The translations under genes and the position numbers were made by a program. Shown here in pieces: positions 567-46,721 of a DNA stretch of 60,256 nucleotides. Every line of letters begins with the position of its first letter. Within the stretch, counting starts at the first letter, position 1. Source of the stretch: Hydrurus foetidus (taxonomy: Eukaryota); NCBI GenBank assembly GCA_900617105.1, contig UYFQ01000614.1, positions 1-60,256 on the forward strand. Reading direction: 5' to 3'. The notes under the pieces are model-generated. The model was not told the DNA's origin and searched no databases. It was given only the letters and a program-made list of their open reading frames with translations.

Positions 567-862
567 TGTTGATGGTGGATCAACTGCCAAGAATTGAAAG
601 ACGTGATTCAATTCGGTGAGTTTAAGTTATGACATCAAAGCGATTGCTGCAGGCAAATTGAGTCGATTCATACCATCGGTAATCTGGTGGTGTGTCCATT
701 GTCTGGAGTGGCGATCAGTATGAATGGTTGAAATGAATGGTTGCTACTGTGTTTGCTACTGTGTTCTACATTGTGATGATGAGGTTTAGATTCGAGTGGA
801 AAAGCAGATTGGTTATCGCTGTACTGCGAATGATGCATACGGGTGACTAGTATACATCAACA
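567..862 (-). repeat. 3' LTR of Copia element A (296 bp)
   Basis: On the minus strand, a purine tract GAGAGGGTG is followed by TGTTGATG at 862. The LTR ends CATCAACA at 567, giving an 8-bp terminal inverted repeat. It lies directly after the RNase H ORF. No second copy is in the window. Confidence 0.8.
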
Positions 863-2757
863 CACCCTCTCAATTTGTCTTTGTTGTGTCTGGGACCATG
901 ATGCGCGACGTGCCTTGGGTGTCTGGGAAGCGGTACCTGGGGATGGTGGTGTGTGGACCAGTAGCTGCATCAAAGTTTGGTGCGTATGCACCGGTAGAGC
1001 CTTGGTGAAAAAGTCGGCAAGGTTGTGTTCACCACGACGCCAAATAACTTGGAAGTGACCCTGAGTAACGCGATCTTGGATCCAATGGTAGCGCATGTCA
1101 ATGGATTTGGTTCTTTTGGCCTTCAACGAGTTTGTTGCGAGGCCGACGGAACATTGATTGTCGTACAGCATTAATGTGGGCGCCTGAGGATATCCCATGT
1201 CGTCGAGGACGCGTCGGAGGTATTCTCCTTCTTGAGCTAGCATGAAGAGTGCGGCGTATTCAGCCTCCGCGGCGGATGCGACTACGGAGGGAATGATTGA
1301 GCTGACAGCGTGGATGGCGCCATTGATGTGCTCTGGTTGTCCTTTATTACTTAGGTAACAGATTCCTCCTGCAACGGATCGAGCATTACTGCGTGATAGG
1401 TAGGAGGCATCGACTTGTATGAAAAACGTCATGTCGCAAGCGTGGTAGACCAATTCATTATTGGGATATCTTGAGCAATATTGGAGGAGGCGATCTGCAA
1501 TGTCAGCTACGTCCCGAGTGGGTGACAATTGCAGCGAGGCGAGTAAATTTACGGTGGGTAGAATTGTGGGATCAACGCCTCGTGCGTAGAAAAGAAGGGA
1601 TCCTACGATTTCTTGAATCCGTTTCGCTGCAGCTGATGTAAGCGCGGGAGATACATCCTCCGTTGTAAGCTGGGACCTAGCTCCGCACGAAGGTGGTGTA
1701 TAGATTGAAGGCGACGGGGCACCGCTTGGTTTGCTCGGGTTGAAACGTTCGAGAACCTTGGCGATGTATGCAGGCATACTGAGTGTTACCGTTTTCTGCT
1801 CGCGATTGAATTTAATTGTAAACCCGATGTCGCTCCGGACAAGTCGATTTTCATTTCATATAGTTCGCGGAGGGCCGAGATGAGGTGTTCTGCAGCTGCG
1901 TCTGTGCAGTACTTGACACCGAAATCGTCAACCACCAAGGCGAAGGTGCTACCGTTGGTAGAATGCCGAAAAAGGCAGGGCGTAGATGTCTCATGGTACT
2001 CGTGTTTCGCGAGGTGGCTGATGAGACGCCTCTGGGCTAAGTAACCGGTTTGCGGCAAGCCGTACATCCCTTGGTTGACCTCAAAGAGGATGGAATTGTT
2101 GGTAAGGTACGGTTCTAACAGATGCCTTTTGATAACGGTGTCTGGAATGAGTTTACGCTGTATGCGGATGTACTCAGGGCGAGGTAATGGTGTATTAAGG
2201 TAGTAGTCCTTGATGTCTAGCGTCATCCATTTGTGGTCATCACTGATAACAGACTGAAGCAACAGCTTGACGACGGGCATTGCTGCGGTGTCGGCTGAAG
2301 TTTCTCCTGGATAGTTTATACGATCACCGCCAATGGTACCGCGAACCCGGAAGGGTTTCTTGCCGAGGGAGTCGTACTTTTCTTTTATTTGTGGATTATA
2401 GTAACTTGTATCGCCTCGTCTATCATGTGGCTGATCTTTGCTGTGGATGGGCTTCATTGTCTTCGAGAGGAACAGCCTGTCAAACTCTTCTTTCTCTGCC
2501 TGTCGCCAGTGGGGTTCTTCGTCACCGCGGATAGCTTTAGCATAAGTGAGTTGCGACCCATCTGGTGCGAGGTTACGGGATAACGTGGTTACTGCCGCAG
2601 TTGCTGAAGTTCTGCTGCATGTCAGAGGCAGAACAGGTCTTGTTTTGTATTTTGCGGACATCCTCGGGAATGGTATGTTGGGTGCAACCAATGGTAATTC
2701 CGGCAGGATGTTTTGTTTCATTGGGGACACCAGCGGTTCGGGAGCGTCTGTGGCTGG
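857..2757 (-). pseudogene. Copia A pol remnant, frameshifted near 1830
   Basis: ORFs 1786-2805 and 857-1777 are consecutive parts of RT-RNase H. The reading IDLSGAT resumes as GFTIKFNREQKTVTLSMPAY in another frame, consistent with loss of about 4 nt. Confidence 0.85.
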
Positions 2758-3149
2758 TGTAACAGAGGGAGTACAGAAATTAGGCGAAATAGCCGTAGAT
2801 TCCATTAAAAAAGAGTTACAACAGCTGTGTGATAAGAATGTGTGGGAGGCAGTTCACCTCAACAGTCTTAGTTACGATCAGAGGAAGAGTATCATAACCA
2901 GCAGTATGTTTCTAAAAGATAAGTATACAGCAGACGGTAAATTTGATAAGCTCAAATCTAGATTTGTAGCAGGAGGGCATTTACAAGATAGAAATATACA
3001 TGATAACGGTTCATCACCAACTGTTAGCACCACTAGCGTATTTATTGTTGCTGCAATCGCTGCTAGTGAAAATCGAGCGGTCGCTACGATCGATTTTCCT
3101 GGTGCATTCCTCAACAGCGATATGCCACTAGACGGTGACCATGCAGTGC

Positions 3150-3458
3150 TGTTATAGTTTCCACTATGTATATATCACACGTACGTACGCACGTTGCTCA
3201 CAACCACAAGTTTTTCATTCCAGTTTTCTGTTTCTGATTCTTGGATTGCTTCAATTCGTGATGCACTCGTTGCCTGTCAATCTCACTCACTTTTCATCGC
3301 TTTAAAACTTTAACTGAAACACCTATACCGATACGGCTTCTCTTAGCCATCTCCGCTATTCTGGACTGACTTTCTTGTCAGCTAGAAGATCTTCGTCTCC
3401 TGCTTTCTTGCAGAACGAATCACCGCTTTTCGTCACTTCACGACGTGCAACCGGCATA
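3150..3458 (+). repeat. Gypsy 5' LTR
   Basis: TGTTATAG...CCGGCATA; matches 10344-10652 except at LTR position 8 (G vs C). Confidence 0.95.
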
Positions 3459-3717
3459 AAAGTACTTTTCTCGTTCACGCACTTCGCGCAATCGAAAGAC
3501 GCTTTCCTCGGAAAGTTATTCAGTATCTTATCTCGTAGAGGCCTCGACCAATTTGCACAATTACTCTACTCTGAGAAGATTCGGACATAAAGCTACGCAA
3601 GCTCCGAAGAAGCAAGAGTCAAGAAGTTTTTTTGTGTAAGTCTTTGTTTCCAATCTGAAACTTCCGTCTACAGCCGATCTACAAATTCTCTTTTCCTATA
3701 CTCTGGCTAGAAATTCC

Positions 3718-5373
3718 ATGTCGCTAGAGGATTCTACCAACTCTAAGGATAACAACCCAGCAGTGGATAGTCAACTAGACATGATGCTCATGTTCAAACA
3801 GTTCATGAAGTCAAGCCAAGAAGACAGAATCCGCAACTCAAATGAGTTTACAGAGCTCCGATCAGCGATAGCCTTGATATCCAGAGGATCCCCGCAGATT
3901 TCACTCGATTCACCGATTCCAGATCGAGCCAATGCCAATAGAAGATCTTCAATGTTCTTTGGCAGTCCGTTACCAAAGGAACGCGAATCGACAACGAAAA
4001 CGCAAATACAAGTACTGCAAGCTGACATCATCTATGATAAAGAATTGAAAGTCAGCTCACTGGAAGGACTGCAGTATCTTGCAAAGCAGCTACAACTCTT
4101 TACCTCCAAGTATCCTGGTCGCGAAGTCAGGACTGCACATATGGTTGCCTTCTCGCTGCGCCCTCACGTTATTGCTTCATGGAACTCTTACTGCTTCAAG
4201 GAATCTCAAATCGCGGGATTGGAAGTAAAAGAAATTATGGTTGAGGACTGGTTATCCCTATCCAATGGTCAAGTTCAAGAAATCCTCGTTGAGTCAGCTC
4301 GACCTCGGACGCGAGAACTCTATTCTCGCGAGCTCGTACTCTTTCTTGGCAAAGGCATTCCCCAGACTCCGACAATCAACCCTGAAAACTTTTCGTCCAC
4401 ATTCTATGCGCCTCTGATGAAATCCCTCAATGACCTCCTCCATCTCCACGATTTGCTATCTGAAGAGACAAGCAATCACAGCAACAATAAATCCTCAATG
4501 CCTGTCCCGGGATATGGAACTCGTGATAGCCCTGGCCAGACTCAACTCTGGATCATATCACTCGGCAATCAGAAGGAAGCTGTTCTTCAATGGCTCGGCA
4601 AAGATGAGCTATCCAAGCACAAGACCCTAGCTCCCGCAGTCAAGTTTATTCGCTCTAAACTCATGGAAGGTCGTCTAAACAGCGAGGCTCGGCAAGACTT
4701 TGATTCCAAGCTCACACCCATTCGCTATGAAGACATCAGACATATGCAAGGAGAATCAAACACAAGGCAACAGACGAACTTCAGTTCGAAGCCACAGAGC
4801 AAGCAACACAACAAGATGCCTTTCTCAAGAGACCATCGTCCACTTGATCATTTCTCTGCCATTCATTCCGCTGCACCAGATTCTTCATATCGTACCAGCT
4901 GTGAAGACGACAACTACTTTGATTCCAATGAAGATGGTGACAACACGATCTACGATGAAGACAACAACGACTTCACCGATGACCTCGAGTATTCAACCAT
5001 CTACAAAACGCCGACAAACTTTCAACACGACAATGAGCTATCCGCACTAGAGAATCTATCTTCCCGCAGTGCAATTGCAAGTACATTTCGCGGTTACTGT
5101 AGCGAGCTGTTCGTCTTTGGTTCTTGCCACCGTCGGGACTCAGGATGTACATTAGATCACACTTCATCTGGACAAGAGAAATGCATACACTCCTTCAATC
5201 TACTCGCGAAGAGAGACCTGACTCAGCATGGACAACTTCCGGCATTCAGCAACGCTACCACACCAGAACGATCAGGATCATTTAAACCATCGTTTCCTAC
5301 CTCTCGCCAGGATAGCCGAATTCCGAAACCTTACGTATCCAATCAAGGCATGCGCTCACTCAAGAACAAGTAG
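3718..5373 (+). CDS. gag: Gypsy Gag-like protein with CCCH-type zinc finger
   Basis: 551-aa ORF between the 5' LTR and pol. C-x8-C-x6-C-x3-H at 5098-5160. Ends in a TAG that is in frame with pol. Confidence 0.85.
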   Translation: MSLEDSTNSKDNNPAVDSQLDMMLMFKQFMKSSQEDRIRNSNEFTELRSAIALISRGSPQISLDSPIPDRANANRRSSMFFGSPLPKERESTTKTQIQVLQADIIYDKELKVSSLEGLQYLAKQLQLFTSKYPGREVRTAHMVAFSLRPHVIASWNSYCFKESQIAGLEVKEIMVEDWLSLSNGQVQEILVESARPRTRELYSRELVLFLGKGIPQTPTINPENFSSTFYAPLMKSLNDLLHLHDLLSEETSNHSNNKSSMPVPGYGTRDSPGQTQLWIISLGNQKEAVLQWLGKDELSKHKTLAPAVKFIRSKLMEGRLNSEARQDFDSKLTPIRYEDIRHMQGESNTRQQTNFSSKPQSKQHNKMPFSRDHRPLDHFSAIHSAAPDSSYRTSCEDDNYFDSNEDGDNTIYDEDNNDFTDDLEYSTIYKTPTNFQHDNELSALENLSSRSAIASTFRGYCSELFVFGSCHRRDSGCTLDHTSSGQEKCIHSFNLLAKRDLTQHGQLPAFSNATTPERSGSFKPSFPTSRQDSRIPKPYVSNQGMRSLKNK

Positions 5374-8300
5374 GAGTTTGCAGGACCTTCTCTCACTGCA
5401 ATGCAAGGAGAAGATCATCCTGCCGACAACCCCAAAATATTTGACCCAGACAATACCATATCGACGGCTCTCATTGCTCAACTAGCGTCTGCAATCTCAG
5501 TTGATCCAAAAGACCTGTGCCACCCGTTTATTCGGCCAGGAACAATACGTAGTCCCGACGGATCCTCTACAATTGTTTTCGATAAAGGTCTACTCGACAC
5601 TGGCGCCCAAGGCAGCAACTTCATTTCAGAAGACCTGTACTCGCGTCTGCCGGCCATCATTACCAATTTATCGAGACCCATCGATCGTGTTGTTCGACTA
5701 GGAGACGCACGACACCTCTTCATACAACTTGAGGTACCACTAAATGTCTCCATTACGGACTTCAATGGACAAGACCATGAACACACTCTATGGTACAGCG
5801 TCCTTAAAGAACTTAGCCATGACATCATCATAGGACTTGTTGATCTCATCGGCCCTTTCTACACTCTGTTCGAAAACTCAGTTGCCACATCGCGCCATAT
5901 CGCCAAGTCTCGTGATCTCGGTAGTCACCTATCCGCCTTGACAACGACAATTATGACCTTAGCAACCAACGATCCAACTGACCATATGATGCAGCAAACT
6001 TCTGAGGCAATCAAGTTGGAACACACTGTCTACAAGGATCGGAAACGTTCAATCCAATCCAGCGTGAATACAACTGTTTCTCTCCTTGCTCTACAAGATG
6101 GCTCAACAGTTGAAACACTCCATCATCCTTTGCACGGCAACGTCTATGCTGACGAACGGATGGAAACAAGATACGACATCTTGACCTCACAATTATGCAC
6201 CCCAACCCCAGGTCTTGTCATGACACCGTGGTCCAATCCGATTGATGCACTCGCTCCCGAGGAACTCGATACGCCTGACCCTACCAGTTTCCCGGATGAC
6301 ATACTCGGATATCTCGCTATGACTCCTGAAAGTGCACGCGCAATTTACCGCGTCGATCTCGAGACCCATATCACAACTGAAATGCGAGAGGCTTGCCCGC
6401 ATATAGTAGACCTACTGACATCAGAACTAGCATACGATGTGTTCGTACCGAGCACCTGGACTGGCATACGCATGGATCCATATCATCTCGATACCAAACC
6501 CGGCCTTCCAGATCATATCAAAGCACATGCTCGACCAGTACGTGAAGCACTCTTTGAAGATGCTAGGACAGAATTCAATAGAATGCGGACATATTTCTAC
6601 GAGAAGTCAACGTCACCAATTGCTTCGCCGCTAGTAATTGCTCCCAAAGCCACAGCCCCTTTCATTCGTATCTGTGGCGACTACCGTCCAATTAATCCTT
6701 ACGTGAGCATCCCACAAGAACCGATACCTCATGTGCAGCAATCACTCGCCAAAGCTGCTGGATGGAATGTATTCGTTGATCTAGACATGACTAACTCGTT
6801 CCATCAAATTCCAATCGACATTGCCAGCTCTAATCTCCTATCAGTATCTACACCGTGGGGCTTATTCAGACCAAAATTTTTGCCAGAGGGTGTCGGACCT
6901 GCGTCAGGCATACTGCAGTCAGTAGTACGCCGAGTATTTTCTGACTTCGAACAGTGGATCATCGTAATCTTCGACAACTTTCTGATTCTGGCGTCCGACT
7001 ATGCAGACGCTGCAGACAAGCTGGAGAAAGTGCTCATCCGTTGTCAATTGCATCGGCTCGTACTCAAGATGAAAAAATCATGGATCGGTGCCGCTGTAGT
7101 CACATTTTTTGGCTACGAAGTGAGACCCGGATCTTGGGGTCTCTCCAACAGCCGTAAAGAGGCAATATCCAATATGATCTTCCCAGCAAACCAGAAGCAA
7201 ATGCAAAGCTTCCTAGGTGCTGCCAACTTCTTTCACACTCATATCCCCAATTACGCACAGTGGGCGTCGTGCTTGTATGAATGCACTACAGCATCGTTTG
7301 ATTGGAACCCCTCGACATGGACCAAAGACTACAAAGATCTCTTCGCTATCTTCAAAACCGCGATAACAAATTCTGCAACACTCTACTTCCCGGACTACTC
7401 TCTTCCATGGATCATTCGCTCAGACTCTTCGGATTACGCAGTCGGTGCAGTCCTGTTCCAGGAGTTCGCGGACACGTCAGACAATATTATTCATCAGCCA
7501 ATAGCTTTTGCATCACACAAGTACTCAGGCGCCGCAATCAATTGGGACACGTTCAAACAGGAGGCTTACGCTCTCTACTTTGCAGTGACACAGTTCTCAT
7601 ACTACTTACGTGGCAAACCGTTCGTCATCGAGACCGATCACCGCAACCTAGTTTGGATAGAATCGAGTTTAGTTCCTATTGTTATTCGCTGGCGAGTACT
7701 GTTGCAGAGCTACGTATTCGATATCAAACACATACCTGGCAAGCAGAACATGGTCGCCGACTGGCTATCGCGAATGTACCCTATACCCGTTCCAGTTCTC
7801 ACAGCTATCACAGACTACCCACCTTTAAGCGAAATTTTCGCTGCTGTCCACGGCAATCGCTCCCTGCATCACGGTGCAAAGCGTACGTACACTAAGTTGT
7901 GTTCCCGCTACCCTGGTCATGGCATTCCGATACGTGTTATACAAGACCTTGTATTTGAGTGTCCAATACGTCAGAAAGATCGCATACCTTTACAGCCCAT
8001 CCCTCACGCTGAAGCACGACAAACACTGATGCATCATATTCGCACTATCGGAATGGATCACGTCACAGTGACACCCGCTGATGAGGATGGCTATATCGGA
8101 CTCCTGCTTGTAGTTGAACTTGACACGAAGTTCCCCCAAGCATATCCTGTCAGAGACTACGGTGCACTCACTGTCGCCACCGTGCTATTCAAGCACTATT
8201 GTACGTTCGGTACATACAACGCTATCATATCTGATCCTGGCAGTGCCTTCACTGCAACAGTCGTGCAACATCTCAACACATGGTTCGGCATACCGCATCA

Positions 8301-9141
8301 TATCTCTGTAGTCGGACGACATGAGTCAAACGGAACGGAACATGTCAATGCTCTATTCATCGGCCACCTCCGTCGACTCGTCCACGATCAACGGATGACT
8401 AACCGCTGGGCCTCGGACACAATACTCCCCCTTATCAATCATGCCATGTCGACGATGCCAAATTCCGAAATCGCTGGCTATTCACCGCATGATCTCAAAT
8501 TTGGAACAGTCGATAAGCAGCACTTCCGGTTACCGACAGCTCTGCCTCCTGGAAATTCATACGCGGAATTCATCAATACATTGAATGAGAATTTGTCAAC
8601 AATACGTGCCATTACAAGCCAATATCAACTCGAACTACGTACCAGGCGACAACTTGAGAATCCTGCTGCCAGTCAAAACCTGTATCAAGCCGGTGATCTC
8701 ATACTGTGGAATCCGAGAGAACATTCGAAGTCCTTCAGGTCGTCAAAACTAGCTCCAAAATTACTGGGACCCTTCGTTGTGTTGACTCAGAAGAAGAACG
8801 ATGTTACGTGTGAGCATATACAATCAAAAGAAATTCGTGTGTTTCACGCATCTCGCATCTCTCCCTACATTGGTTCACACACATCAGCAGCAGATGCTAG
8901 TCTACTGGATTCAGAGGAATATATTGTCGAGTCAATAACAGCACATCGAGGATCATGGACATCACTTACCTCACTCGAGTTCCTTGTACACTGGCTTGGA
9001 TATCCAACCGAAGACGACACTTGGGAACCATACCGCAATCTTCGTCATCTTGATGCCCTCCACGAGTACCTGCGAAAAAATAATAAAGAGAGTCTAATAC
9101 CAAATATCCACCGGAACTATTTTCTCCACGATGTATACTGA
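5374..9141 (+). CDS. pol: Gypsy Pol (protease, RT, RNase H, integrase, chromodomain)
   Basis: LLDTGA protease; RICGDYR, DLDMTNSFHQ and IFDN in RT; SDSSDYAVGA, ETDHRNL and ADWLSR in RNase H; GMDH, ISDPG and GTE in integrase; YIVESI..FLVHWLGY..DTWEP chromodomain. The frame is open from directly after the gag TAG; first ATG at 5401. Confidence 0.95.
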   Translation, partial: EFAGPSLTAMQGEDHPADNPKIFDPDNTISTALIAQLASAISVDPKDLCHPFIRPGTIRSPDGSSTIVFDKGLLDTGAQGSNFISEDLYSRLPAIITNLSRPIDRVVRLGDARHLFIQLEVPLNVSITDFNGQDHEHTLWYSVLKELSHDIIIGLVDLIGPFYTLFENSVATSRHIAKSRDLGSHLSALTTTIMTLATNDPTDHMMQQTSEAIKLEHTVYKDRKRSIQSSVNTTVSLLALQDGSTVETLHHPLHGNVYADERMETRYDILTSQLCTPTPGLVMTPWSNPIDALAPEELDTPDPTSFPDDILGYLAMTPESARAIYRVDLETHITTEMREACPHIVDLLTSELAYDVFVPSTWTGIRMDPYHLDTKPGLPDHIKAHARPVREALFEDARTEFNRMRTYFYEKSTSPIASPLVIAPKATAPFIRICGDYRPINPYVSIPQEPIPHVQQSLAKAAGWNVFVDLDMTNSFHQIPIDIASSNLLSVSTPWGLFRPKFLPEGVGPASGILQSVVRRVFSDFEQWIIVIFDNFLILASDYADAADKLEKVLIRCQLHRLVLKMKKSWIGAAVVTFFGYEVRPGSWGLSNSRKEAISNMIFPANQKQMQSFLGAANFFHTHIPNYAQWASCLYECTTASFDWNPSTWTKDYKDLFAIFKTAITNSATLYFPDYSLPWIIRSDSSDYAVGAVLFQEFADTSDNIIHQPIAFASHKYSGAAINWDTFKQEAYALYFAVTQFSYYLRGKPFVIETDHRNLVWIESSLVPIVIRWRVLLQSYVFDIKHIPGKQNMVADWLSRMYPIPVPVLTAITDYPPLSEIFAAVHGNRSLHHGAKRTYTKLCSRYPGHGIPIRVIQDLVFECPIRQKDRIPLQPIPHAEARQTLMHHIRTIGMDHVTVTPADEDGYIGLLLVVELDTKFPQAYPVRDYGALTVATVLFKHYCTFGTYNAIISDPGSAFTATVVQHLNTWFGIPHHISVVGRHESNGTEHVNALFIGHLRRLVHDQRMTNRWASDTILPLINHAMSTMPNSEIAGYSPHDLKFGTVDKQHFRLPTALPPGNSYAEFINTLNENLSTIRAITSQYQLELRTRRQLENPAASQNLYQAGDLILWNPREHSKSFRSSKLAPKLLGPFVVLTQKKNDVTCEHIQSKEIRVFHASRISPYIGSHTSAADASLLDSEEYIVESITAHRGSWTSLTSLEFLVHWLGYPTEDDTWEPYRNLRHLDALHEYLRKNNKESLIPNIHRNYFLHDVY

Positions 9142-9196
9142 TCGTGGCCAGGTATCACAAACTGCTGACCGCTCATTGTAACATGGTACGAGACCA

Positions 9197-9934
9197 CTAT
9201 GTGAGGACGTCCTTAGAAAGTGGGTAACCCCTGCAAAAACAACTATTTAAAAATAATTTCCCCAAAGGGATCGAACCCGAGGGGGGAGTCGAACCCGGAG
9301 GTTGAGGTGCCTTCTTCCACCCCTTCTTGTACAAATCAAAGAAGAAACAATACGTCAAATCAGCCATTTTATCTGCCAAGTTCTCCACAGTAAATTCAAC
9401 ACTACCAGCAGTACACGCATTGTCAAATAATCTCACTCCGTTTTCATCATTACGTATACTGACTGCGTGATCATGCCTGCTGTACCCTGTCGCTTTCTTG
9501 CTATAAGTCTCCACTTTGTCCTCCACGCCTTCCGCTTTCCCTATCCTCTTTAACAAAGCTTTGTGTTCTGCGTTCTTCAACTTTGATTTGCCGAACAAAA
9601 TGTATATACCCTTGTTCGCCAGCACTGTCTTGATCAATGATTTCACGCACCAGCACCTGTCTTTGTCCACTCTGCCTATCACCCTACGGAACTCGAACTT
9701 CAACTTCCTGCCCAACTTCCTATTCTGTACACACGCATGCTTCAAAAAATTCAAAGCGTCATGCGATGATGCTCCGTAATGTAGTTTGCTTGTGACATCG
9801 ACAGCAATTGAATTCTTGTACACATCACCAGCATCACCACCCAATCGAATCCAATCCTGCTTTTCGCTCGACAATGGCAATACCATCGCTGCTGCCAGGC
9901 ATAAATTCTTTGACGGCCTGAAGTCGTCTGTCAT
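9197..9934 (-). CDS. Antisense accessory ORF inside the Gypsy element; putative papain-fold (Josephin/C39-like) cysteine peptidase
   Basis: 245-aa ATG-initiated ORF between pol and the PPT. Motifs NLCLAAAM (C12), HDHAVSIR (H156) and RLFDN (D171). The ORF is directly visible; the function is inferred from motif layout only. Confidence 0.6.
   Translation of the reverse strand: MTDDFRPSKNLCLAAAMVLPLSSEKQDWIRLGGDAGDVYKNSIAVDVTSKLHYGASSHDALNFLKHACVQNRKLGRKLKFEFRRVIGRVDKDRCWCVKSLIKTVLANKGIYILFGKSKLKNAEHKALLKRIGKAEGVEDKVETYSKKATGYSRHDHAVSIRNDENGVRLFDNACTAGSVEFTVENLADKMADLTYCFFFDLYKKGWKKAPQPPGSTPPSGSIPLGKLFLNSCFCRGYPLSKDVLT
9267..9295 (-). promoter_or_regulatory. Two tandem Pol III B-box-like motifs
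   Basis: Minus-strand GGTTCGACTCC (9285-9295) and GGTTCGATCCC (9267-9277), 18 bp apart, with a T5 run about 14 nt downstream. Confidence 0.45.
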
Positions 9935-10112
9935 GTTCTATACTTGTGTTGTGCTTGTCATGTAGTATATATCCTGCACCATCACACAGCCATCAATTTA
10001 TCAATGGTTATCACGGCGGCACCATCAATTTTTAAAAAATCTTTCAGAGCCACACATGCCACCCCACACGACATCCGCAGACGGGGGTTTCGCTTTTCCT
10101 TAAATCTATCTA

Positions 10113-10203
10113 ATGTACACAGCTCAGTGGTAGAGCGCCCACTCTTCACACCCCATATTAGCGCGCCAAGAAGTCTGCGGTTCAAACCCAGCTTTTTCAT
10201 CCA
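10113..10203 (+). ncRNA. tRNA-like / Pol III type-2 promoter unit inside the Gypsy element
   Basis: D-arm AGCTCAGTGGTAGAGCG (10121-10137), B-box GGTTCAAACCC (10179-10189), TTTTT (10193-10197) and CCA (10201-10203). The anticodon and acceptor stems do not pair properly, so this is not a canonical tRNA. Confidence 0.5.
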
Positions 10204-10343
10204 CTTATCGTTTTCGCACTTACTGCACTATGTAGCTTCTTTAGCGGTACATTTCTTCATGCGAACTCTCAGAGATGTAGCAGAAGACTTTGTATTTGTT
10301 TAATTGACATCCACAATTTGACATTTCACCTGGAGAGGGGTGG

Positions 10344-10652
10344 TGTTATACTTTCCACTATGTATATATCACACGTACGTACGCACGTTGCTCACAACCA
10401 CAAGTTTTTCATTCCAGTTTTCTGTTTCTGATTCTTGGATTGCTTCAATTCGTGATGCACTCGTTGCCTGTCAATCTCACTCACTTTTCATCGCTTTAAA
10501 ACTTTAACTGAAACACCTATACCGATACGGCTTCTCTTAGCCATCTCCGCTATTCTGGACTGACTTTCTTGTCAGCTAGAAGATCTTCGTCTCCTGCTTT
10601 CTTGCAGAACGAATCACCGCTTTTCGTCACTTCACGACGTGCAACCGGCATA
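10344..10652 (+). repeat. Gypsy 3' LTR
   Basis: TGTTATAC...CCGGCATA; preceded by the PPT and followed by TSD GTGC. Confidence 0.95.
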
Positions 10653-12369
10653 GTGCTGATGAGACTGAATAAATATTTGACTATCATATTAGTTAGCATT
10701 GACAAGTCTTATCAGAAGTATGTAAATGAAAAAGGAACAGTAGTAGTTAAACTTAAGAAAGCATTATATGGATGTGTAGAGTCAGCTAAGATATGGTATG
10801 ATAAAATATCATCAGATTTAACACAGCTAGGCTATAAGGTAAATCCATCAGGTATATGCGTATTCAATAGGACTGAGCTAGATTCTACTCAGACTACTTT
10901 AGTTATCCATGTTGACGATATGATGATCAACAGTAGGGATGAGAAGCGTATAGATAGTATAATTTCAGAGATAGAAAAACTATACCCAGGCTTAACTAAG
11001 AGTAGAGGTAAAGTGTTGAATTATATAGGTATGACTTTTAACTTTGAGCAGTTAGGCAGAGTTATCATATCCATGGAAGGTTTCATAAAAGACTTGTTAG
11101 ACGATTGCATAGAGATTGTGGGGGTGTCTAGAACACCTGCCGACGATAATCTATTTAAGATCGATCTTAACAGTCCTTTACTGAAAGATAAAGAACGTGA
11201 GAGATTCCACTCTCTAACAGCTAAGTTGTTATATTTAAGTAAGAGAACCAGACCAGACATACTGACATGTATAGCATATCTAACTAAAAGAGTCTTAGAA
11301 CCCAGAATCGACGAGTGGAATAAGTTAGCGCATACTATACGGTATATTAGAGAGACTAGAGCTACGCCGCTGACCCTAGAGGTAGATACTCCTGTTAAGG
11401 TTATAGCCTATATAGATGCATCATACGCTGTACATGCAGATAAGAAGAGTCACACTGGCTGTATTATAACACTAGGTAAGGGAGCAATATATGGTACGAG
11501 TTCGACTCAGAAATTAAATATCACGTCTAGCACAGAGGCAGAATTAGTAGCTATGACTGAAGCAGGTAATCAGGTTTTATGGACTAGGAATTTCCTTATC
11601 CATCAAGAGTATGAGGTAGGTCCAGCTTTAATTTACCAAGATAACCTATCCACAATTCAGTTAGTTAAGAACGGTAGGTCCAACAGTGGGAGAACTAGAC
11701 ACATAGACATCAAGTTTTTCTTCCTGCATGACCGAATTAAATCAGACCATATTATTGTAGCCTACAAGAGTACCAAAGAAATGATTGCAGATTTGCTGAC
11801 CAAGCCACTGCAGGGGAAGCTATTCCAAGAGCTACGTGACCAAGTGCTCAATGTATAAAGAAATTCAGGGGAGTTATTTATTGATTTTGACTTACCCACA
11901 TATAGCGCTTTTTCCAGATAAATTACAAAATAAAAATAAAAATCTGATTTCGCTTTAAATCAACATTTGTTTGATAGGACCGCGAGGGACATCGATAGAC
12001 CGCTTTTGCGACATCGAATGTCGATGTTTTAGTGGATTTAAGGGCACCAACATCGGTTGGATCGAACTCGAGACCGGTCACCAGCTGACGCTGTTTTGAC
12101 GGTTTAGAAATAGTTTTTCTTGAATAATACCTATCCACTCATCCAACCACCCATGTTTTATTTTACACCATATCACGACGAAACTTGTCAATATTAAAAA
12201 ATTCCGTGAAAAATATTTTTAAGAAAATTTACTGTTTACCATACCCTAACACTAAGTTCCCTATCTGAGTGTTGTGTGAAACATTATGAACAATAACCAA
12301 TAAGTATACTATAAAAGCATATGCTAATTAACATATTCACTTATTCAAACAATAACCATCATGGGGGTG

Positions 12370-30425: not shown

Positions 30426-30817
30426 TCTTGGAATAAGGCTGTCTTTTGGATCCTGGATCCAGTCAAAGCACCTGGATGATAGCAGTGATTCGTTCAGAAT
30501 ACACTTTGCTTTCAGCTAGTCGACCAAGGTCGCTTCAACAGCTCACTCTAGTGTAGGTATAATGGCACACAGCCATATAGTCTCTTTTAATTAGAAGTGC
30601 TCATTGTGTCAAAACATAGCAGTTCATGGCTAGCTATACTAGCTACAGTTGGCTGTTCACTGTCATCATCAGTTGCAACTTTCAGTACAGTTTGAGAGAT
30701 GGTCTCGGGTCTGTGAGCGCTACCCTCGCTCCTCCACTTGGGCTTGAAGTGATATTACCCAAAGGGAATTCCCCCAAAGGGATTGTCCCCATAGGGATAG
30801 CTATGCTATATCCAACA
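30426..30817 (-). repeat. Copia C 3' LTR (392 bp)
   Basis: Direct repeat of 35929-36319 with one extra base in GGGCTTGAAGTG. Confidence 0.95.
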
Positions 30818-30982
30818 CACCCCTAATGTCACAAGCATTCAGGCGGCATATTCATATTTCTTCATAGAAATGTAATCATAAATCGTGTTTGTAACTATGG
30901 TAAGCTATAGTGATCATACAAGTTTTGTTGCTAATAAAAGTTTTAAAAAATAGCTCAACTGTAAGTCAATAATGTGAAGTAC

Positions 30983-33900
30983 TTAATTTCCTAGTATTTT
31001 CTTCACCAACTTGAAAAAAATCGTTCCTTGTAGTGGCTTGGTGTAGTAATCGGATGTCATATCCTCGGTGGGCACGTAGACAATGTTTACGGCACCGATA
31101 CGGATGTAGTCTGAGATCCAGAATTGTCGTACCTCAATAAACCGGGTGGTCTCTGCGGTAGACCGACCTTTTTTCAGCAGCGCGATACATGACTGATTGT
31201 CTTGTTCCAGCCTCACTGGGTGTTTTCCATGTCCTTGGTATGCAATAAAACCAGCAAGCCATAGCGGGATGTTCATTCCGTCGGAAACCGCAATGATCTC
31301 GGACTCCGTACTTGACTTGGAATTCAGCTTCTGGACCTTGGAACTCGAAATAAAATTCCCCACCCCTAATGTGACACACATTCCTGAGGTTGATTTCATT
31401 TGCTCTCTGTTAGCAAATGCAGCATCAATTGATACTGTGACTGTCATTGGCAAAGTGCAACCGAGTCGTAATGGCTTGTCTCTAGTAGCCCTCAGATAGC
31501 ATATGAGCCTATCGAGTTTCTTGTCGTCTTCTGTTGTCGGTGCCTTTACACGTTTGCACAGTTCACCCAACACTAATACAATGTCTGGGCGTGTTCGGTT
31601 CCCCAGGTATAGCGCCGTAGCAACGTCGGTGTGAAAGGTTTTAGCGTCTTTCTCATTCAGGAATTTGCAGTCCAAGGTCCGCTCAAATAGGTGTGGGGCA
31701 CCCGGTGATGATGGGTCTCCGATGAGCTTCATACCGCGTTCGGCATGGCTTTTTTCCCTTGATGATATCAAATCTTGGATCATCCCGATCTGTGTTACCT
31801 TTACAAATCTAGGCTCAGTGTAATCCCACATGCACCCTAGGTACGGTAGAACGCGCTCTTGGGTGGTACGGAATTGGCCGTACGTTTTCAACAAAATCTT
31901 TTCCATGTCAAGAACCGCTTTCTTGTCCACGCATGTCATCTTTAGATCGTCTACGTAGACTAGGATCGTAAATTGGTTGCCTTTGATGTCCTTGTTGAAG
32001 ACGCAAATATCGCGCGGGTTAGCCGTGAAACCATTTGACCGTAGGGTTCCGGCTATCTCGTTGTACCATAGTTTAGCAGACTCAATACACCCGTATAGTG
32101 CTTTGTCCAGTCTCACCACCAACCCTCCATTGTGTCTTCTGAAGGGCGAAAAAGATTTGTCTTGTTTGATGATGGCGTCGGTCACATTCTTATCGATATA
32201 CATATGAAGGATTTTATCCGGTTTATCCATAGGCATGTTGGCGTTGAGGTACGCGGACCCAACGTCCCCGACCATGATGAAACGGTTTTCCGCAGCAGCA
32301 ATCTGTGCAACTGTAAATATAGCAGCTATGCTCGCTGTTGGTGACTCAACTTCATCTGCAGCATAGTCCTCTCTGACTTGTGCACGCCCATCCACACAGA
32401 AGCGCGCCTTGACCTTGTCGATTTGGCGATCGCCATTCGAGTTTAGTGTTGGAAGGTATTTCTCCACAACATTCATGTTCGAACGGAGGATCTTCTTTGT
32501 CTGAGTAGGTGTGAGTTGTTCCATGTGGACTCCTGAAAATGTCCCCTTTGCCAGTAGTGATTTGACCTCTGACTCAATGGCTGCGGTAGCCTTATCCGGG
32601 AAAAGTTTCAGTGCCCGGGTAACTGTCATAAGTGACCAGTCACCCCTAATTCCTTCTTTCTGTGCTGGAATAGGTAGTTTGTCAGCTACTAAGTTGAGTC
32701 GGTCTGGTGCCTTTCGAATTCTCGTCGACTTCTCACGCAATTCAACTGGTGCACTAGGTATGTACGTACGTACTGCGGTGGTAGGTGGTGCCTCTGGTTG
32801 CTCCTCCGGTACCGCTTCAAATGTAGTTTCTGGCCCGGATACTTCGTCGGAAGTCAGATTACTAGTATTTTCAGCACCCGCCGATTCCATTTCACCCCGA
32901 ATCTCAATTTGGTCTTGAGCAATTTGAGGTTCCATCATGGTATGAGGCGTGTCGGTTTCATCCGGGAACACCGGTAAGATTGGAGGTGTAAGTTGAAACG
33001 GGATTGTTGGCACCGGTATTGAAGGTGAATCCATTGTGACAATATCATCGTCGATATCTCCTGTGATGTCTTTATCATGGAAAGTGAATATTGGTTCTTT
33101 CGATGTATGTATCTTGTTCTTCGATGCCCACCCATTTACAGTGGTGCTGACGAGTGGTGGTATCGGTAGCACCACATAGTGGTTGGCCGATATGACGCTC
33201 CTAGTGTCAATGCGCATAAAGGAATGGGTGCCTGTCCCATTCATCTTTGGTTCTAGGTATAGGCATCCAATGGTTCTTGGATCCATGTTGTTGCTAAGCA
33301 CCCTCCCGGTGACTTGGCAGTATGACCCGAATGGTGGTCCAATATCTTTTTTCGTGTCCGCCTTTCTACCAAAGAAAGCTTCAAAAGGGGAAATTCTATC
33401 TGTCCTCGTCGATGAGGGAAAGAGTAGTAACTTCTTCGCAGAGGCTGTCACGAGGTAGGACATGAGTATGTCAGGCAGTAGGTACGGTAGACTGAAGATG
33501 GTACAGCGGATGGTCTCCTTTAGGTGCCTGATCATTCGTTCAATAATATGATCATGTTGCCCTGGACCAACCGCAATCACTTCGACACCCATGGCGTTCA
33601 TGTCGTTGAAAAGTGCAGCGATGCCTCGCTCATTGTCACTTGTAAATTTCACGATTGAAATTCGTCGGGACCCGATGGTGCCGAACATACGCTTGAGGCT
33701 CTGTCTGAGCACCGGCGTTGTAACATTTTCAACACAGCCGACCAAAACAATTCCCAGTGGATGGGTAATTGAAACTAGGAATGGCTGTTTATTTATGAAC
33801 ATGATGTCACAATGCATGTGTTGCGCATCAAAGTTTCGTGTCGTAGTAGGTAGCTGTGGTGGTGGCATAGGCCTCAGCCGAGTAGTGCGTCCTTTGAGTG

Positions 33901-35901
33901 ACGCCGTGTTTGGTCCCCAAATTTCTGTAGCACGTGCGACATCTTCAGGTAAGATGTCGCAGTTGAGAAACGTTCCAGCTCGCAATGCAGAAATGAATTT
34001 CTGATCTGGTGGAAATCCCAAACTCGCTTGCATGCGTCGTGCATCAGCGCTTCTTTGAACTTCGCGTTTCGTGAATTTGGCTTCGTTGGCGTCCGTTGTA
34101 GGCAGTTTTGTAGAGTAAAATATACTTGTAGATGGTGTTTTTACCACTGCCGGATGAGCATATGCATTTCTGCGCTCTGCGGCGTCAGAATATCGCGGCT
34201 CCGGAGGCACCGCCAAATCGGCGACATATAGCCCTCCACGATGTTGGAATTTGTAGGTGCTCTGATCAGTGTGGAGCAGAAATGCATCCTGATCTATCAT
34301 AGAACCCTGGCGAAACTCCCAGTTGTGCCCTTGCAACAGGCAATCGGATGCCGATACGATGGAAAGTCCAGCACGCGGATCAAAATGAACGATGCCAATG
34401 TCACGAAGGTTTCCTGCTTTAGTTACAGTAAGCGAACCATGCAAGCCTTTGAACACAGTAGGAGTGCATGTCGCGATGTCACTCAGAACATCCGCACATG
34501 TAATGATGGTGCCAGTAGCTCCAGTGTCAAAGATGGCTTCGGAGGTACTATGTTGGTTGATGTTACGGTTTGCAGAAAAATCGGTCCGAGGACCGAGGGT
34601 TGCGACTTCCACCGGTGTGGTGGTATAGCACACGCTACAGTGCCTGTCGCCATGTTCATTCTCGTTAACCTCTTGATCCCACATTTGGCCAAAAGCAGTG
34701 TAGACATCTCCTTGAGCACTGGGGTCATCTTCCTCAGTTTGTCTCCTCGCCGACATTGATGTTTTTGGGGCTGAAGGAGGCTCTCCGGCTGCCTTCTTTC
34801 TGCACTCACTAGCACGATGACCTGCTTTTCCACAGTGGTAACAAATCCCACTGAACTTGCCCTCCTTTGTATCTTTAGCAAAGGACACTTTCGGCTCTTT
34901 AATCTTTGCCGGATTGATCTTCTTGGCCTTTTCTTTAGCGGGTGGTTTTTCGCCCTTTGGGGACCGCCCGGTTTCATGAGGTTCTTTGCTGCAAGTGCCG
35001 TTTGGTGAGTCACTATCGCTGATTGTAATGCGCTACCCTTTACCCCACGATGGAATCTAGTCGCTCCGTTGATGGCTTCCATCAGGGTCTTCGGATAAAT
35101 GTCAATCTTGTTGCACTCCAAATAATTGCTGAGATAGTTCTTGTAGTCATGATAGACCTGTGAGGTACTACTCAACCCCTCAATTAGCTTTGTCGCTTGT
35201 TGGACAGCATTTGGAATCTGCGCTTCTGGTACTCCTGTTGCAGCGAGTCGATCGAAAAGCTTGACCGCACGTCGTCCGTACGGTACGATGTCTTCACCCG
35301 TACTCATAGTCAGCGTGTACCAGTCCCGTAGGGCCTGGGACCGCTCAAATTCCTGATTACCATCACATCTTGATGTAACAACTGACTTGATGACTTCAAG
35401 TAGTTTAAGTGGATCGTCGAATTCGACTGCTATGAATTCCGAATTCACTATCAGAATCGCGTTTAGCGATGGTGAACACATGCTCCGAATCAGGCGATAT
35501 GCCGATTCACGATCGTCCATTTGCTTCATTATCCTCTTATTCACCAATGCTCTGTCGGTGTTGATATCATTCATCATCATCTTTGCTCGGTATCCCTTTG
35601 GATCCGAGATTTCGGTGAACGATTCCAGTAATGTGAAGTTCGGCGGCTTGAAGTTGTAAACCTTGTAGGCAGGTTTGATGGTGAGTAGCATTGGGTCGGG
35701 ACAGATGCTCTGAAGGTCCTGAAAGTTGCTCCTCATATACTCTTTCAGTTTCAGCATATTGGCGTCCCATTCTTTCCACCCGTTATGGGTTATCTCAGGC
35801 AAACTTTCTGGCCTCGAGCCATCTGAGATTGCTGAACTTTCGCGCTTTTCACCCTTCTCAGGTTTTGATTGGGCAGCGCTTTTCTCGCCTCGCTGACTCA
35901 T
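30983..35901 (-). CDS. Copia C Gag-Pol polyprotein, broken by one frameshift near 34985
   Basis: Gag ATG at 35901. CYHCGKAGHRASEC knuckle, IFDTGA protease, HCD/SDNE/IERMIR integrase, GDVGSAYL, KALYG and YVDD RT, and IDAAF, STESE and SDYYTKPL RNase H are all in the -1 frame. Confidence 0.9.
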
Positions 35902-35928
35902 TCTGAGCTAGCTAGCGGCTTCTAATTA

Positions 35929-36319
35929 TCTTGGAATAAGGCTGTCTTTTGGATCCTGGATCCAGTCAAAGCACCTGGATGATAGCAGTGATTCGTTCAG
36001 AATACACTTTGCTTTCAGCTAGTCGACCAAGGTCGCTTCAACAGCTCACTCTAGTGTAGGTATAATGGCACACAGCCATATAGTCTCTTTTAATTAGAAG
36101 TGCTCATTGTGTCAAAACATAGCAGTTCATGGCTAGCTATACTAGCTACAGTTGGCTGTTCACTGTCATCATCAGTTGCAACTTTCAGTACAGTTTGAGA
36201 GATGGTCTCGGGTCTGTGAGCGCTACCCTCGCTCCTCCACTTGGGCTTAAGTGATATTACCCAAAGGGAATTCCCCCAAAGGGATTGTCCCCATAGGGAT
36301 AGCTATGCTATATCCAACA
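35929..36319 (-). repeat. Copia C 5' LTR (391 bp)
   Basis: TGTTGGA...TCCAAGA on the minus strand. Confidence 0.95.
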
Positions 36320-42760: not shown

Positions 42761-44399
42761 GTTCGTCGCAAAATGTCAAATGAAAATTTCGATGCTAAAT
42801 ATACAGCAAAATCACTCCGATCCGATAGATCAGCGAAAAGGAGAATCGCAAAATCCTTGCGCTGTGTAAAAATACCGTCGCAACTGCTAGTATGCACATG
42901 TTGTACACATTAAAAATAATCAATGATATAAGTTCCAGTCTCTTGTTGTAATGCCAATCACATAATTCTGCCACGTAGATATCGGCAGAACGACCAGCAC
43001 AATCCTGATTACATGAAACTGCTTTTGACTGTATGAAACACTTTGAGTCACTTTGACAAGTAAAGCGCGTTTGTCAACGTTACGTGATTATGTCAAAGTT
43101 ACGTGATTACTTATATTTGCTTTTGATTGTCATCGCGTTGTGGGTTACCATTCTTATTTGCGTATGGCACCAAAATAAATTGTATTTTCAATTTCAAACG
43201 ATACCTCGAGGGTATAGAACTTTTACGAGAGTTCTTAGCTAACTATGCCTTGTAAATGGTTAATTTTATCTTATCATAAAACTAAACAGAACCCTTTAGT
43301 GGAATGCAGTAGTTGTTTATCCCAGTATAGTACTCTGGCGCGACTTGATAGCCTTATGTAGGAACATTCAGGTACTGTTTACAACATCACGAGGTCTTTG
43401 AATTTTAGTTTGAAGAAGTTCTCCTCAGATCGCATGTCGCGAGGGTGGTGGTTCGTTTCTGAGAAGAATTCCGAAGGGCCCAACTGTATGAGAATGAGTG
43501 ACATCTCCCTTGTTAATGGAGACGCATATTCAACATTCTTTGGCTTCAGCCCAGGAGCTACTGTCGATGAACATCTTCACATCAGATCTGCTCAAAGCTA
43601 CTCCTGGCATCCTCACTTCATATTTTGAATTCTGCTATTCTGCGTGCTTTCCAATCTTGTGGGTTCAAAACTGTTCTTATTGCTCTTTAAGTGTAGTTGA
43701 CAGCAAGTGCTCTGTCACACAGCTTTCTAAAATACGCAATTATGCAATCATTGTTTTAGTTATCCATAAATCTAAGGTCTAAGGTCCCATCACGACCTTC
43801 ATGCTTCATGAGACTTCGTTAAATCCTCACGATCAACATTGGTTTCAATTGATTGTTTAATAAATTGGGATGAGTACCAACCACTTTCAATCGTGTAAAA
43901 GTCCTACTTCAAATTAATTTTTTACTAGGAGTTAAACTAACTGGTAATTGATGTCATGACGACAGTGGTTTTATTTGACGCTACTGACTGTCGTGCATGA
44001 TCTCTGTGGCATTTCCGATCGTTGAAATGTAGACTGGTGGATTGATTTTGTCGTTTTAAAAGGTGTGTTCAGTGATTCAGAATGTCACGAAAAAAACTAG
44101 TGCGTTTGACCGTGATGCACATACATTTGAACCAGAATTATCGCTTCTCCTCGTGTTGAAACCAGAACAGTCAGGTATCAGTGTAGATGATTCCATTCCA
44201 CAACCATCACATTATTTCCGAGGATGTTGTCTTTTCCTAAGACCAGTCAACTGAAAATTCTTATTCCAGTGGGGGGCACAATCGGCGACGGGGCATAACT
44301 GGCGACGTTTGTATATTGACATTCACGTACTGCTACCAACATTTCTTGCAATAACTTTTTTTTCAGTTCAATAGTCAGCACACTTTAAATCACCTCAGG

Positions 44400-46181
44400 A
44401 TGCACCCGAGGCTTGCGAATCCATGGGGAAAATCCCAAGTAAAATTGGAGGCGAATTCGCTAAACGTTCTGCAAAAGACTTGGTTGATCCATGAGATCAA
44501 ATATCATGGACAGTCTTGTGCCAAACTAGGCGAGAGATACGGCATCGACAGGAAACTTTTGTCGAAATGGGTCCTCAAATACGGTCAGAATACGGCTGTA
44601 ACAACCAGTGCCGGTCGACCACCTCTGTTTACAAAGAGTTGCTTGATTGCTTTGAAGAAAGATTTGAACAGTCAAGCCTATAACGTGAAAAAGGAAGATT
44701 TCGTCAGTACCTTAGTAAAGAAGCGTGTCGAATTAGTCCAAGCGTCGAAGAACATAGCGACCTGTTCTATCGATCCAGTATCTCGTCGCTCTGTGGGGCG
44801 ACGCATGATCGACATGGAGGTCAAATGTGGGAATGCAGAGCAGACAACCGATGCACGGGCAAAGGCTACTGCAGACAAGATCAATGCGATTTCAGTTGCA
44901 GCTGCGCATCACTTAATGATGCCGCTCACTGACCCTCACATCACAATCAACGCAGATGGTACTTCTTACCAGACTGGAGGTGGATTGACGGACCAAGTCG
45001 CTATTGTCTTCGACCCAGAGGAACAGTCTAGGAGAGGTACCCCTCTGAAGGTACTGCCTGTCAAAGGGTCTTCATTGACAGCTTTCTTTGTCAAATTTTA
45101 CTTGTGCATGAACGCGACTGGTGCTACTGCTCCCCCTGTCTATATTGTGGCGGACAACAACATGAAGGAGGGGGCAATTGACTGCTATGAAGTCCCAGGG
45201 CTGGGTATAGGTACCGAGGTAGACAGCTCGGGGTATATCGTATTTGCTAAAACGCGATCTGTCAACGAGTCTTTCTATCGCTGGTGGTTCTTCTCCATTT
45301 ATGTACCTTTCGTGCTGAGGCTAAGAAACAGATATGAGTTGTCAGACGCCATACCTTCTTACTTTACTTTGGATGGAGAGGACGTCCAAATCAAGCCGAT
45401 GCAGTCGGCCGAGGTGCGGTTGGCTTGCAAGGAACTGAATATTGTGATTGGTAAACCGCCCGCCTCAACAACATCAATCACTCAACCTTGCGATGCGGGC
45501 AAGTGTTTCCTCGCTTCGAAGACAAAAAAAAGGCATCTGAAGTCGGTTCAAGAAGTACTCGACGTGGTCATGACGAATCGCATTAAAAAAATTATGAAAA
45601 GTCATGAAGCTAAAGTGGGCAAGACACTACCATCTCATCATGTAAAAGGCATATATGAAGGTGTACAGACTGTCCAATACATCATCTCTACCACTATGAG
45701 GAAGGACACAATCACCCAATCATTTGAGATAGTTGGACAGTACGATCGCAAGACAGGTGGGTGCAATGTGGAACAAGTTTTGAAGCAATGCAAGACGCCC
45801 TTTACAACAGAGGAGGTAACGAAGGTTTGGGAGCATTTACCAAGGTTGTGCAACATATTAAAAACGAAGGGCGAAATACAGGAGAAAGATTATTTACCCC
45901 TGGAGATAGGGGTTATCGAGCCCGGAAAATCTCGCGACGATTTTGTCTTGAATCGCCGGAGATTTCTCTTCCTTACAAATCCTGCCTTCATCGCAGGCGA
46001 AGATAAAAAGCGTGAGGAAAAGCTCGCTCTTGCAGAAGACAAAAAGGAGAAAGCTGTGAAAAGGAAAGTCGCTGCAGAGGAGCGAAAGCTGCAACCACCA
46101 GCCGCGAAAAGGGCGAAGAAGAATCCCGTCACTGTCGCTCCAGATGCTGCTGTTGGTGCTGCTGATGCTGCTGATATTTAG
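44400..46181 (+). CDS. pogo-like DD39D transposase
   Basis: N-terminal HTH with GRPP linker; INADGT, TLDGE and STTSITQPCD catalytic motifs, with 39 residues between the second and third Asp; basic C-terminal tail. Confidence 0.9.
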   Translation: MHPRLANPWGKSQVKLEANSLNVLQKTWLIHEIKYHGQSCAKLGERYGIDRKLLSKWVLKYGQNTAVTTSAGRPPLFTKSCLIALKKDLNSQAYNVKKEDFVSTLVKKRVELVQASKNIATCSIDPVSRRSVGRRMIDMEVKCGNAEQTTDARAKATADKINAISVAAAHHLMMPLTDPHITINADGTSYQTGGGLTDQVAIVFDPEEQSRRGTPLKVLPVKGSSLTAFFVKFYLCMNATGATAPPVYIVADNNMKEGAIDCYEVPGLGIGTEVDSSGYIVFAKTRSVNESFYRWWFFSIYVPFVLRLRNRYELSDAIPSYFTLDGEDVQIKPMQSAEVRLACKELNIVIGKPPASTTSITQPCDAGKCFLASKTKKRHLKSVQEVLDVVMTNRIKKIMKSHEAKVGKTLPSHHVKGIYEGVQTVQYIISTTMRKDTITQSFEIVGQYDRKTGGCNVEQVLKQCKTPFTTEEVTKVWEHLPRLCNILKTKGEIQEKDYLPLEIGVIEPGKSRDDFVLNRRRFLFLTNPAFIAGEDKKREEKLALAEDKKEKAVKRKVAAEERKLQPPAAKRAKKNPVTVAPDAAVGAADAADI

Positions 46182-46202
46182 TACTTTCTTCACATTTGCA
46201 CA

Positions 46203-46721
46203 CTACGACCAATATATGTATGGTTCTTCAATGTAAGGTAAAAATTCTGGAGGTGTCTCATCGTTCAGGAATAGTTCCGGATGTAGCCGTCTTGCATAGC
46301 GTTTTAAACTCCTTCGCGGCACTTTGACATCCCTCCCGTCATTTGCAATCTCTTCCACAGTAGGGGGACACCTTCTGATGCGAGTGGCAGTATACTCGTC
46401 GCTGATTGATTGATTAAGGACTGCCCTATCCGAACAAGCATTATTTTGGATTGATGCACCAATTATTTCATGGCTGATGACATCAAGAACTCGCGGCCGC
46501 CCACTCTTCAACCTTAATGGCAGACCCTTGAGGTGCCGAACAACCATTTTATGTAAGTTTTTCCTGCTGAATGAACACCTCTTGGCAAGACTTGCAACCG
46601 TTTCCACTTTTGAAATCACCAGCTGAACCATCCAGCACTTTTGCTCTAGCGTAGGCTTCGCGATTTTAAAATTACAGTCCAATAGCGGATCATGACCGCC
46701 TAGAACGGCTGCGTCGTTCAT
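46203..46721 (-). CDS. HTH-only paralog of the transposase DNA-binding domain
   Basis: 172 aa. EQKCWM, LAKRCSFSRKNLHK, SGRPRVL and VPRRSLKR are collinear with transposase LQKTWL, LGERYGIDRKLLSK, AGRPPLF and VSRRSVGR. Confidence 0.75.
   Translation of the reverse strand: MNDAAVLGGHDPLLDCNFKIAKPTLEQKCWMVQLVISKVETVASLAKRCSFSRKNLHKMVVRHLKGLPLRLKSGRPRVLDVISHEIIGASIQNNACSDRAVLNQSISDEYTATRIRRCPPTVEEIANDGRDVKVPRRSLKRYARRLHPELFLNDETPPEFLPYIEEPYIYWS

Follow-up and report, generated by a model that had tools for sequence, protein, structure and literature searches.

An antisense gene of a chromodomain gypsy retrotransposon and its predicted papain-like cysteine hydrolase

What might an intact open reading frame (ORF) encode when it lies antisense to gag and pol, in the slot between pol and the 3' LTR of a retrotransposon? 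Some gypsy elements of plants and fungi have antisense ORFs at this position (PMC7264820; PMC11963269; Botrytis preprint), and in rotifers, LTR elements with ORFs of esterase and exonuclease type have been described (PMC5408684). DNA transposons and non-LTR transposons are known to carry peptidases, in the form of VTD, OTU, Ulp1, C19 and Josephin-like domains (PMC9741609, PMC2836005, PMC6431247, PMC8557442). The window considered here, the whole stretch of 60,256 nucleotides that was analysed, contains a gypsy element for which the original prediction proposed an antisense cysteine peptidase of Josephin or papain-like layout. The sequence features on which that proposal was built, namely an intact 245-aa antisense ORF between pol and the polypurine tract (PPT), LTRs that differ at one base, and the translated motifs NLC12LAAAM, KGIYILFG, H156 in HAVSIR and D171 in RLFDN, are all present as described.

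The element and its antisense gene

The element and its parts are as follows.

3145..3149, left target-site duplication AGTGC, inside the reverse transcriptase (RT) of an older copia element
3150-10651, gypsy retrotransposon, whole element
3150..3457, plus strand, 5' LTR, 308 bp, ends TG..AT
3718..5373, plus strand, gag-position ORF, 551 aa, ending in TAG, in frame with pol
5401..9141, plus strand, pol, with DTG protease motif, RT, RNase H, integrase, SH3 and chromodomain
8920-9075, plus strand, chromodomain of pol (aa 1174-1225; PF00385, E 4.9e-10)
9197..9934, minus strand, antisense ORF, 245 aa in the present copy, between pol and the PPT and overlapping neither
9254..9934, minus strand, family form of the antisense ORF, 226 aa plus stop, with the predicted papain-like domain at residues 1-203
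10332..10343, plus strand, PPT
10344..10651, plus strand, 3' LTR, 308 bp
10652..10656, right target-site duplication, after which the host copia RT resumes, to 11858 (PF07727)

This chromodomain gypsy element is a young insertion. A single base differs between the two LTRs, the target-site duplication is 5 bp long, and the empty-site joint from 3144 to 10652 was found in three of four sequencing runs (X1, X19 and X20), with an equivalent joint in the fourth. Pol matches PF00078, PF17917, PF00665 and PF00385 and has the layout of a chromovirus, in which the gypsy order of protease, RT, RNase H, then integrase, is followed by a C-terminal chromodomain; by eye, the latter has the Y-W-Y aromatic cage of group I. 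No Pfam match above cut-off was obtained for the gag-position ORF, whose TAG lies 27 nt upstream of the first ATG of pol (5371-5400) in the same frame, so that read-through of the stop is possible. The termini of the LTRs are TG..AT rather than TG..CA, and a 12-bp perfect palindrome directly follows the 5' LTR (3150-3469) in place of a TGG-type primer site; priming of the element may be unusual.

Mobile DNA is also found elsewhere in the window. The gypsy element sits between nested copia pieces (857-3149 and 10652-11858), in the RT of a plus-strand copia that abuts a minus-strand copia, and 30426-36319 is taken up by a further copia-like element, on the minus strand, whose LTRs are nearly identical and whose gag/pol is split over two overlapping ORFs. 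The segment at 44263-46851 has terminal inverted repeats of 55 bp and two ORFs, one of 593 aa on the plus strand, with no Pfam match, and one of 172 aa on the minus strand; it is likely to be a DNA transposon, and the AT-rich DNA at 58257-59747 holds a 496-aa intronless ORF, again without a Pfam match, which is possibly mobile. Two ORFs near the gypsy element resemble, by eye, ochrophyte plastid-targeted proteins, and together with the freshwater, sediment and glacier runs in which the element occurs they hint at a stramenopile alga, probably of fresh water, as the host.

The element is present in freshwater, sediment and glacier sequencing runs, and sister copies from several studies carry the same antisense ORF in the same place. 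Single contigs spanning the end of pol, the antisense ORF and the start of the LTR were recovered from run X9 and from run X13, the latter an element-sized contig of 7174 nt, and contigs from runs X15 and X1 span the end of pol with most or all of the ORF. In six of seven runs (the seventh having no coverage of the site) a stop stands at codon 227 (9255 A>T), and this indicates that the family protein is one of 226 aa, like homologue P0002, the last 19 residues being an apparent read-through private to the present copy. A family length of 245 aa is thus ruled out by the sister copies. Distant relatives of the protein end near residue 203-212. The family stop codons of pol (9120) and of the antisense ORF (9255), as seen in sister copies, have both been lost from the present copy.

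Conservation of the ORF in sister copies and selection upon it, which the original prediction had named among the ways to judge it, both came out in its favour. Within codons 1-206 we counted 11 synonymous and 5 replacement differences (126:492 sites), giving an approximate pN/pS of 0.12 (P 4e-5) from the best 40 of 96 variant sites. These values support the view that the ORF is a fixed part of the element, apparently under purifying selection. A chance or shadow ORF is ruled out by this excess of synonymous changes together with base shuffling of the 1.2-kb region, in which none of 2000 shuffles yielded an ORF of at least 245 aa and two of 2000 yielded one of at least 206 aa. In several runs, three short pieces recur in contigs that are otherwise dissimilar: a 38-nt piece between pol and the end of the ORF (9172-9209), the His-Asp segment of a diverged subfamily (9391-9454) and the PPT/LTR start (10311-10360). 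Related families coexist in the same samples as the element.

A protein family and its predicted fold

The antisense protein matched no peptidase family in sequence and profile searches of Pfam, NCBIfam and the PDB. It does have many relatives in metagenomes: 24 homologues matched at 50-96% identity, a profile search for relatives gave 68 matches, and 72 of 73 representatives matched the family, P0085 being a repeat artefact that was dropped. Cluster members included, the set comprises 226 metagenomic sequences, of which 155 have at least 140 aa, and these reduce to 43 representatives at below 60% identity. When the Pfam families of 91 family members were inspected, there was no peptidase among the best 25 of 38. 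Fused forms of 498-2000 aa were likewise looked for and none was found, which is weak evidence.

Against this background, the residues that the original prediction had singled out as catalytic hold up well, being among the best-conserved columns of the family.

9899..9901, minus strand, Cys12, putative nucleophile, opening helix 12-18; kept in 14/15 representatives with a residue there
9467..9469, minus strand, His156, putative general base, opening strand 156-163; kept in 42/42
9422..9424, minus strand, Asp171, predicted third triad residue, after strand 166-170; D in 37/40, N in 3/40

The only exception at Cys12 is P0057, which is apparently in the wrong reading frame there, and the other cysteines (C68, C94 and C96) vary across the representatives. 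Asn172 is as conserved as Asp171 (37 of 40). The residue after His156 is Ala in 37 of 41 representatives and Gly in the other four, and is never aromatic. Papain-like enzymes are expected to have an oxyanion Gln five or six residues before the catalytic Cys, and no conserved Gln was found at Cys-5/-6 among the 43 representatives.

An AlphaFold model of residues 1-206 built from 91 sequences (pLDDT 93, pTM 0.89) replaced a first model from 25 close sequences, for which pLDDT was 48 and Z was at most 4.1. In a VIA comparison with 48,161 chains, 46 of the 50 best rows were assigned to papain-fold enzymes, with the whole domain aligned; the four rows left out of this count were 22oc, 8brf, 8ssk and 8ssm. 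A second comparison agreed. The closest structures included VTD (8add; Z 8.3, rmsd 4.4, 151 aligned), C39 of ComA (Z 8.3, rmsd 3.8 over 131; in the second comparison 5xe9, Z 8.5, rmsd 3.7 over 131), staphopain (Z 8.2), M48 (Z 7.7) and Josephin-2 (Z 7.4, rmsd 4.5 over 127), with C39 matches spanning Z 7.7-8.5 overall and Josephins 5.9-7.4. These values need careful interpretation, as the best scores (Z about 8, identity 6-16%) fall in a range that the tool itself calls common. Each score taken singly is middling, but the rows as a whole are uniform. Foldseek returned no match at E <= 0.001, its best row being AvrPphB (E 0.017; VIA Z 5.8), and BFVD likewise gave none. The model has no membrane helix, which rules out an env-like protein.

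Taken together, the fold of the antisense protein is predicted to be papain-like, with a Cys12-His156-Asp171 triad, and this part of the original prediction stands. Its Josephin part does not: no Josephin profile is matched, an aromatic gatekeeper is lacking, and Josephin-2, within about one Z unit of the best rows (8.3-8.5), is only about tied with C39, VTD and staphopain (Z 7.4-8.5). If the model is right, the conserved accessory gene would encode a stand-alone papain-fold cysteine hydrolase, and we consider it very probable that the product is active as such. We regard the ORF as a real gene, and its product as most likely representing a new peptidase family, of over 200 metagenomic sequences and with no Pfam model, in a new kind of carrier.

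Distant members, a possible intron and expression

Of the 226 family sequences, 37 begin at M(Q)M-[NDS]-G, two of these being full-length, and many distant members lack the Cys. The N-terminal extensions of P0049 and P0057 would allow for the Cys motif in another reading frame (matched in 4 and 12 of 500 shuffles, respectively) and, 21 codons beyond the Asn, for a GT donor at the point where some 35 truncated members begin; intronless members continue into the same segment at the putative donor position. The shifted-frame test covered seven proteins, with P0065 showing the motif without a donor and four of the seven giving no match. These comparisons of proteins lead us to propose that some family members have an intron, about 65 nt long.

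The antisense gene would be expressed from its own antisense mRNA, a transcript separate from the genomic RNA, because it is unreadable from the latter and because an intron seems to persist in distant members; only a sense gene would lose its intron by reverse transcription. Put the other way round, an intron kept through reverse transcription would imply a gene antisense to the genomic RNA, and its presence would imply a separate spliced mRNA.

The carriers of distant members may be judged by the size of their contigs. In ten clusters, 16 of 22 contigs longer than 5 kb measure 6.9-7.9 kb, and these come from seven of the ten clusters, down to about 25% identity, with two contigs each in the 5-6 kb and 6-6.9 kb bins; contigs of this size are frequent for clusters at 25-40% identity. 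One LTR plus the internal region of the present element amounts to 7194 bp. This match of contig sizes suggests, indirectly, that related LTR elements carry the antisense gene throughout the family. Searches of metagenome, viral and prokaryote contigs did not yield loci of relatives, and 18 motif loci put forward as relatives were rejected as chance (best HMM E 0.0024, no pol match).

Two further features lie around the antisense ORF.

10120..10197, plus strand, tRNA-like unit with A box, B box and T5, about 190 nt upstream of the antisense ORF and divergent from it
9267..9295, minus strand, two B-box-like motifs in the Pro-rich tail of the antisense ORF, close subfamily only

The 60-kb window contains three exact B-box matches, all in the 3' region of the element, where 0.66 would be expected. 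Neither ARAGORN nor Rfam made a call for the tRNA-like unit, the middle of which varies much among sister copies. The unit is a candidate Pol III/TFIIIC site next to the promoter of the antisense gene.

Possible substrates and relation to known systems

If the protein is an active cysteine hydrolase, its substrate becomes the key question. The homologues are basic proteins (pI about 9-10 in nine of eleven), no signal peptide or membrane helix was seen by eye, and the protein is probably intracellular, possibly nuclear. We suggest that its targets are host proteins, with the cleavage of ubiquitin-like tags as the most probable mode of action: marks of the ubiquitin, NEDD8 or SUMO type would be removed from Gag/Pol, from the integration complex or from silencing factors, and their removal would let the element escape degradation or silencing. 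The same role has been proposed for the VTD and OTU domains of Helitrons and the Ulp1 domains of Ginger and Mutator elements (PMC9741609, PMC2836005). Several of the top fold matches are deubiquitinases, which is in favour of this function, but C39, staphopain and AvrPphB, which are not, match equally well, and the missing aromatic gatekeeper and D-x-H motif also count against it. A prediction of the complex with ubiquitin scored 0.01 in a run made without alignments and without folded controls, a result that weighs on neither side. By analogy with these systems, a ubiquitin or ubiquitin-like isopeptidase is a plausible assignment that falls a little short of probable. The complete picture, in which an old peptidase family occupies the antisense slot of an algal chromodomain LTR lineage, is expressed from its own spliced mRNA and provides the first ubiquitin or ubiquitin-like deconjugase of an LTR retrotransposon, directed against host degradation or silencing, is more tentative and should be taken as a working proposal.

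The alternative that survives best is a site-specific endopeptidase of the C39 or YopT/AvrPphB type, cutting a host silencing or restriction protein rather than ubiquitin-like tags. C39 ties for the best Z (8.3-8.5), AvrPphB comes first in Foldseek, and for homologue P0012 the Atlas points to clusters of C39 and C58 (0.88, short of the tool's 0.9 mark); the conventional Cys-His-Asp order, the Ala after the His and the lack of a gatekeeper also fit such an enzyme. The scores are weak, however, and are tied with those of deubiquitinase folds, and the transposon-borne cysteine peptidases reported so far in the accessible parts of the literature belong to families that cleave ubiquitin or ubiquitin-like proteins (PMC9741609, PMC2836005), so that we view this alternative as rather unlikely.

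It is also conceivable that there is no active enzyme at all: the fold might be a relic within a binding protein, or the region might be kept for antisense RNA or Pol III signals. The tRNA-like A and B boxes flank the antisense ORF, and roles of antisense RNA have been discussed for plant elements (PMC7264820), but the dominance of synonymous changes, the confidently predicted fold and the triad columns, which stay the best conserved across the 43 representatives where identity drops to 25%, make this improbable. The papain fold carries deamidase, acyltransferase and transglutaminase chemistry in other families, and an enzyme of this kind might, for example, modify a ubiquitin-like protein, a histone or an RNAi factor without cutting it. 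The missing oxyanion Gln and gatekeeper and the basic surface would be in keeping with this; the top fold matches are nearly all peptidases, and we consider such chemistry distinctly improbable here. Finally, processing or turnover of the element's own Gag or Pol, a role in Gag turnover having been raised in the original prediction, would accord with the unusual gag ORF but is very improbable because pol retains its own DTG aspartic-protease motif, and the antisense gene would not be made with Gag-Pol from the genomic RNA.

Returning to the deconjugase that we favour, it is instructive to set the protein beside the families that it most resembles. As in Josephins (C86), the Cys is N-terminal and the His and Asp lie on adjacent strands 15 residues apart (16 in bacterial Josephins), a spacing that also occurs in other families and hence is not specific. 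The starts of the alignment ranges place C12 on PcJOS C162 (4->154) and on PaJOS C66 (5->59), assuming no early gap, and both of these are catalytic cysteines (10.1101/2024.07.24.604956). Josephins have an aromatic gatekeeper after the catalytic His, as do conventional deubiquitinases except VTD and ZUFSP (10.1101/2024.07.24.604956). VTD, found in Helitrons and herpesvirus tegument proteins, shares with the antisense protein the papain fold and the thiol chemistry, both predicted for the latter, a transposon as carrier (in Helitrons) and the lack of this gatekeeper, and Helitron VTDs cleave ubiquitin and NEDD8 (PMC9741609). Its active site is flipped, with a D-x-H motif (PMC9741609), whereas in the antisense family the His sits at 156, before the Asp, and positions 171-173 read D-N-G/A/S, with His not among the commonest residues at 173. 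C39 (ComA, PCAT1) and C58 (YopT/AvrPphB) have a similarly small papain-like core in the conventional Cys-His-Asp order, but are bacterial, gave no HMM match and are some 60 residues shorter; C39 is, moreover, fused to an ABC exporter, in contrast to the stand-alone antisense ORF, which has no PF03412 match. Judged by its sequence, the antisense protein is not a member of the Josephin, VTD or C39 families, the missing aromatic gatekeeper setting it apart from the first and the missing D-x-H motif from the second. If a ubiquitin-like tag is indeed cleaved without the usual gatekeeper, this would be a new class of deubiquitinase.

The carriers differ as well. Josephin-like domains occur in retroelements, the Dualen non-LTR and Chlamys Penelope-like elements, but inside the RT polyprotein (PMC8557442), and the Helitron VTD lies inside the RepHel ORF of a DNA transposon (PMC9741609), whereas the present gene is separate, antisense and part of an LTR retrotransposon. 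Ginger1, Mutator and Helitron elements likewise keep ubiquitin or SUMO peptidases (OTU, Ulp1 and C19), but these are of other families, in DNA transposons and mostly fused to the transposase (PMC2836005, PMC6431247). In the mostly open-access literature that was searched, no cysteine peptidase borne by an LTR element was found, and there may be an earlier mention elsewhere. With the enzyme proposed here, the range of transposon-borne cysteine peptidases, known from DNA and non-LTR elements, would come to include LTR retrotransposons.

The closest parallels in position are gene23 of Grande in maize, RIRE2, TRP28 of Retand and brtn of Boty in Botrytis, which are also antisense, between pol and the 3' LTR, fixed in their families and conserved like gag-pol (PMC7264820, PMC11963269). 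The accessible parts of these reviews name no peptidase or clear enzyme among them, and the plant elements concerned are mostly Tat/Retand-type non-chromoviruses, whereas the present element has a chromodomain. The antisense ORFs described in LTR retrotransposons have thus been without a clear enzymatic function (PMC7264820), whereas the present one has a confidently predicted fold, with three named candidate catalytic residues that make the role of an antisense ORF open to testing by a point mutant and standard probes.
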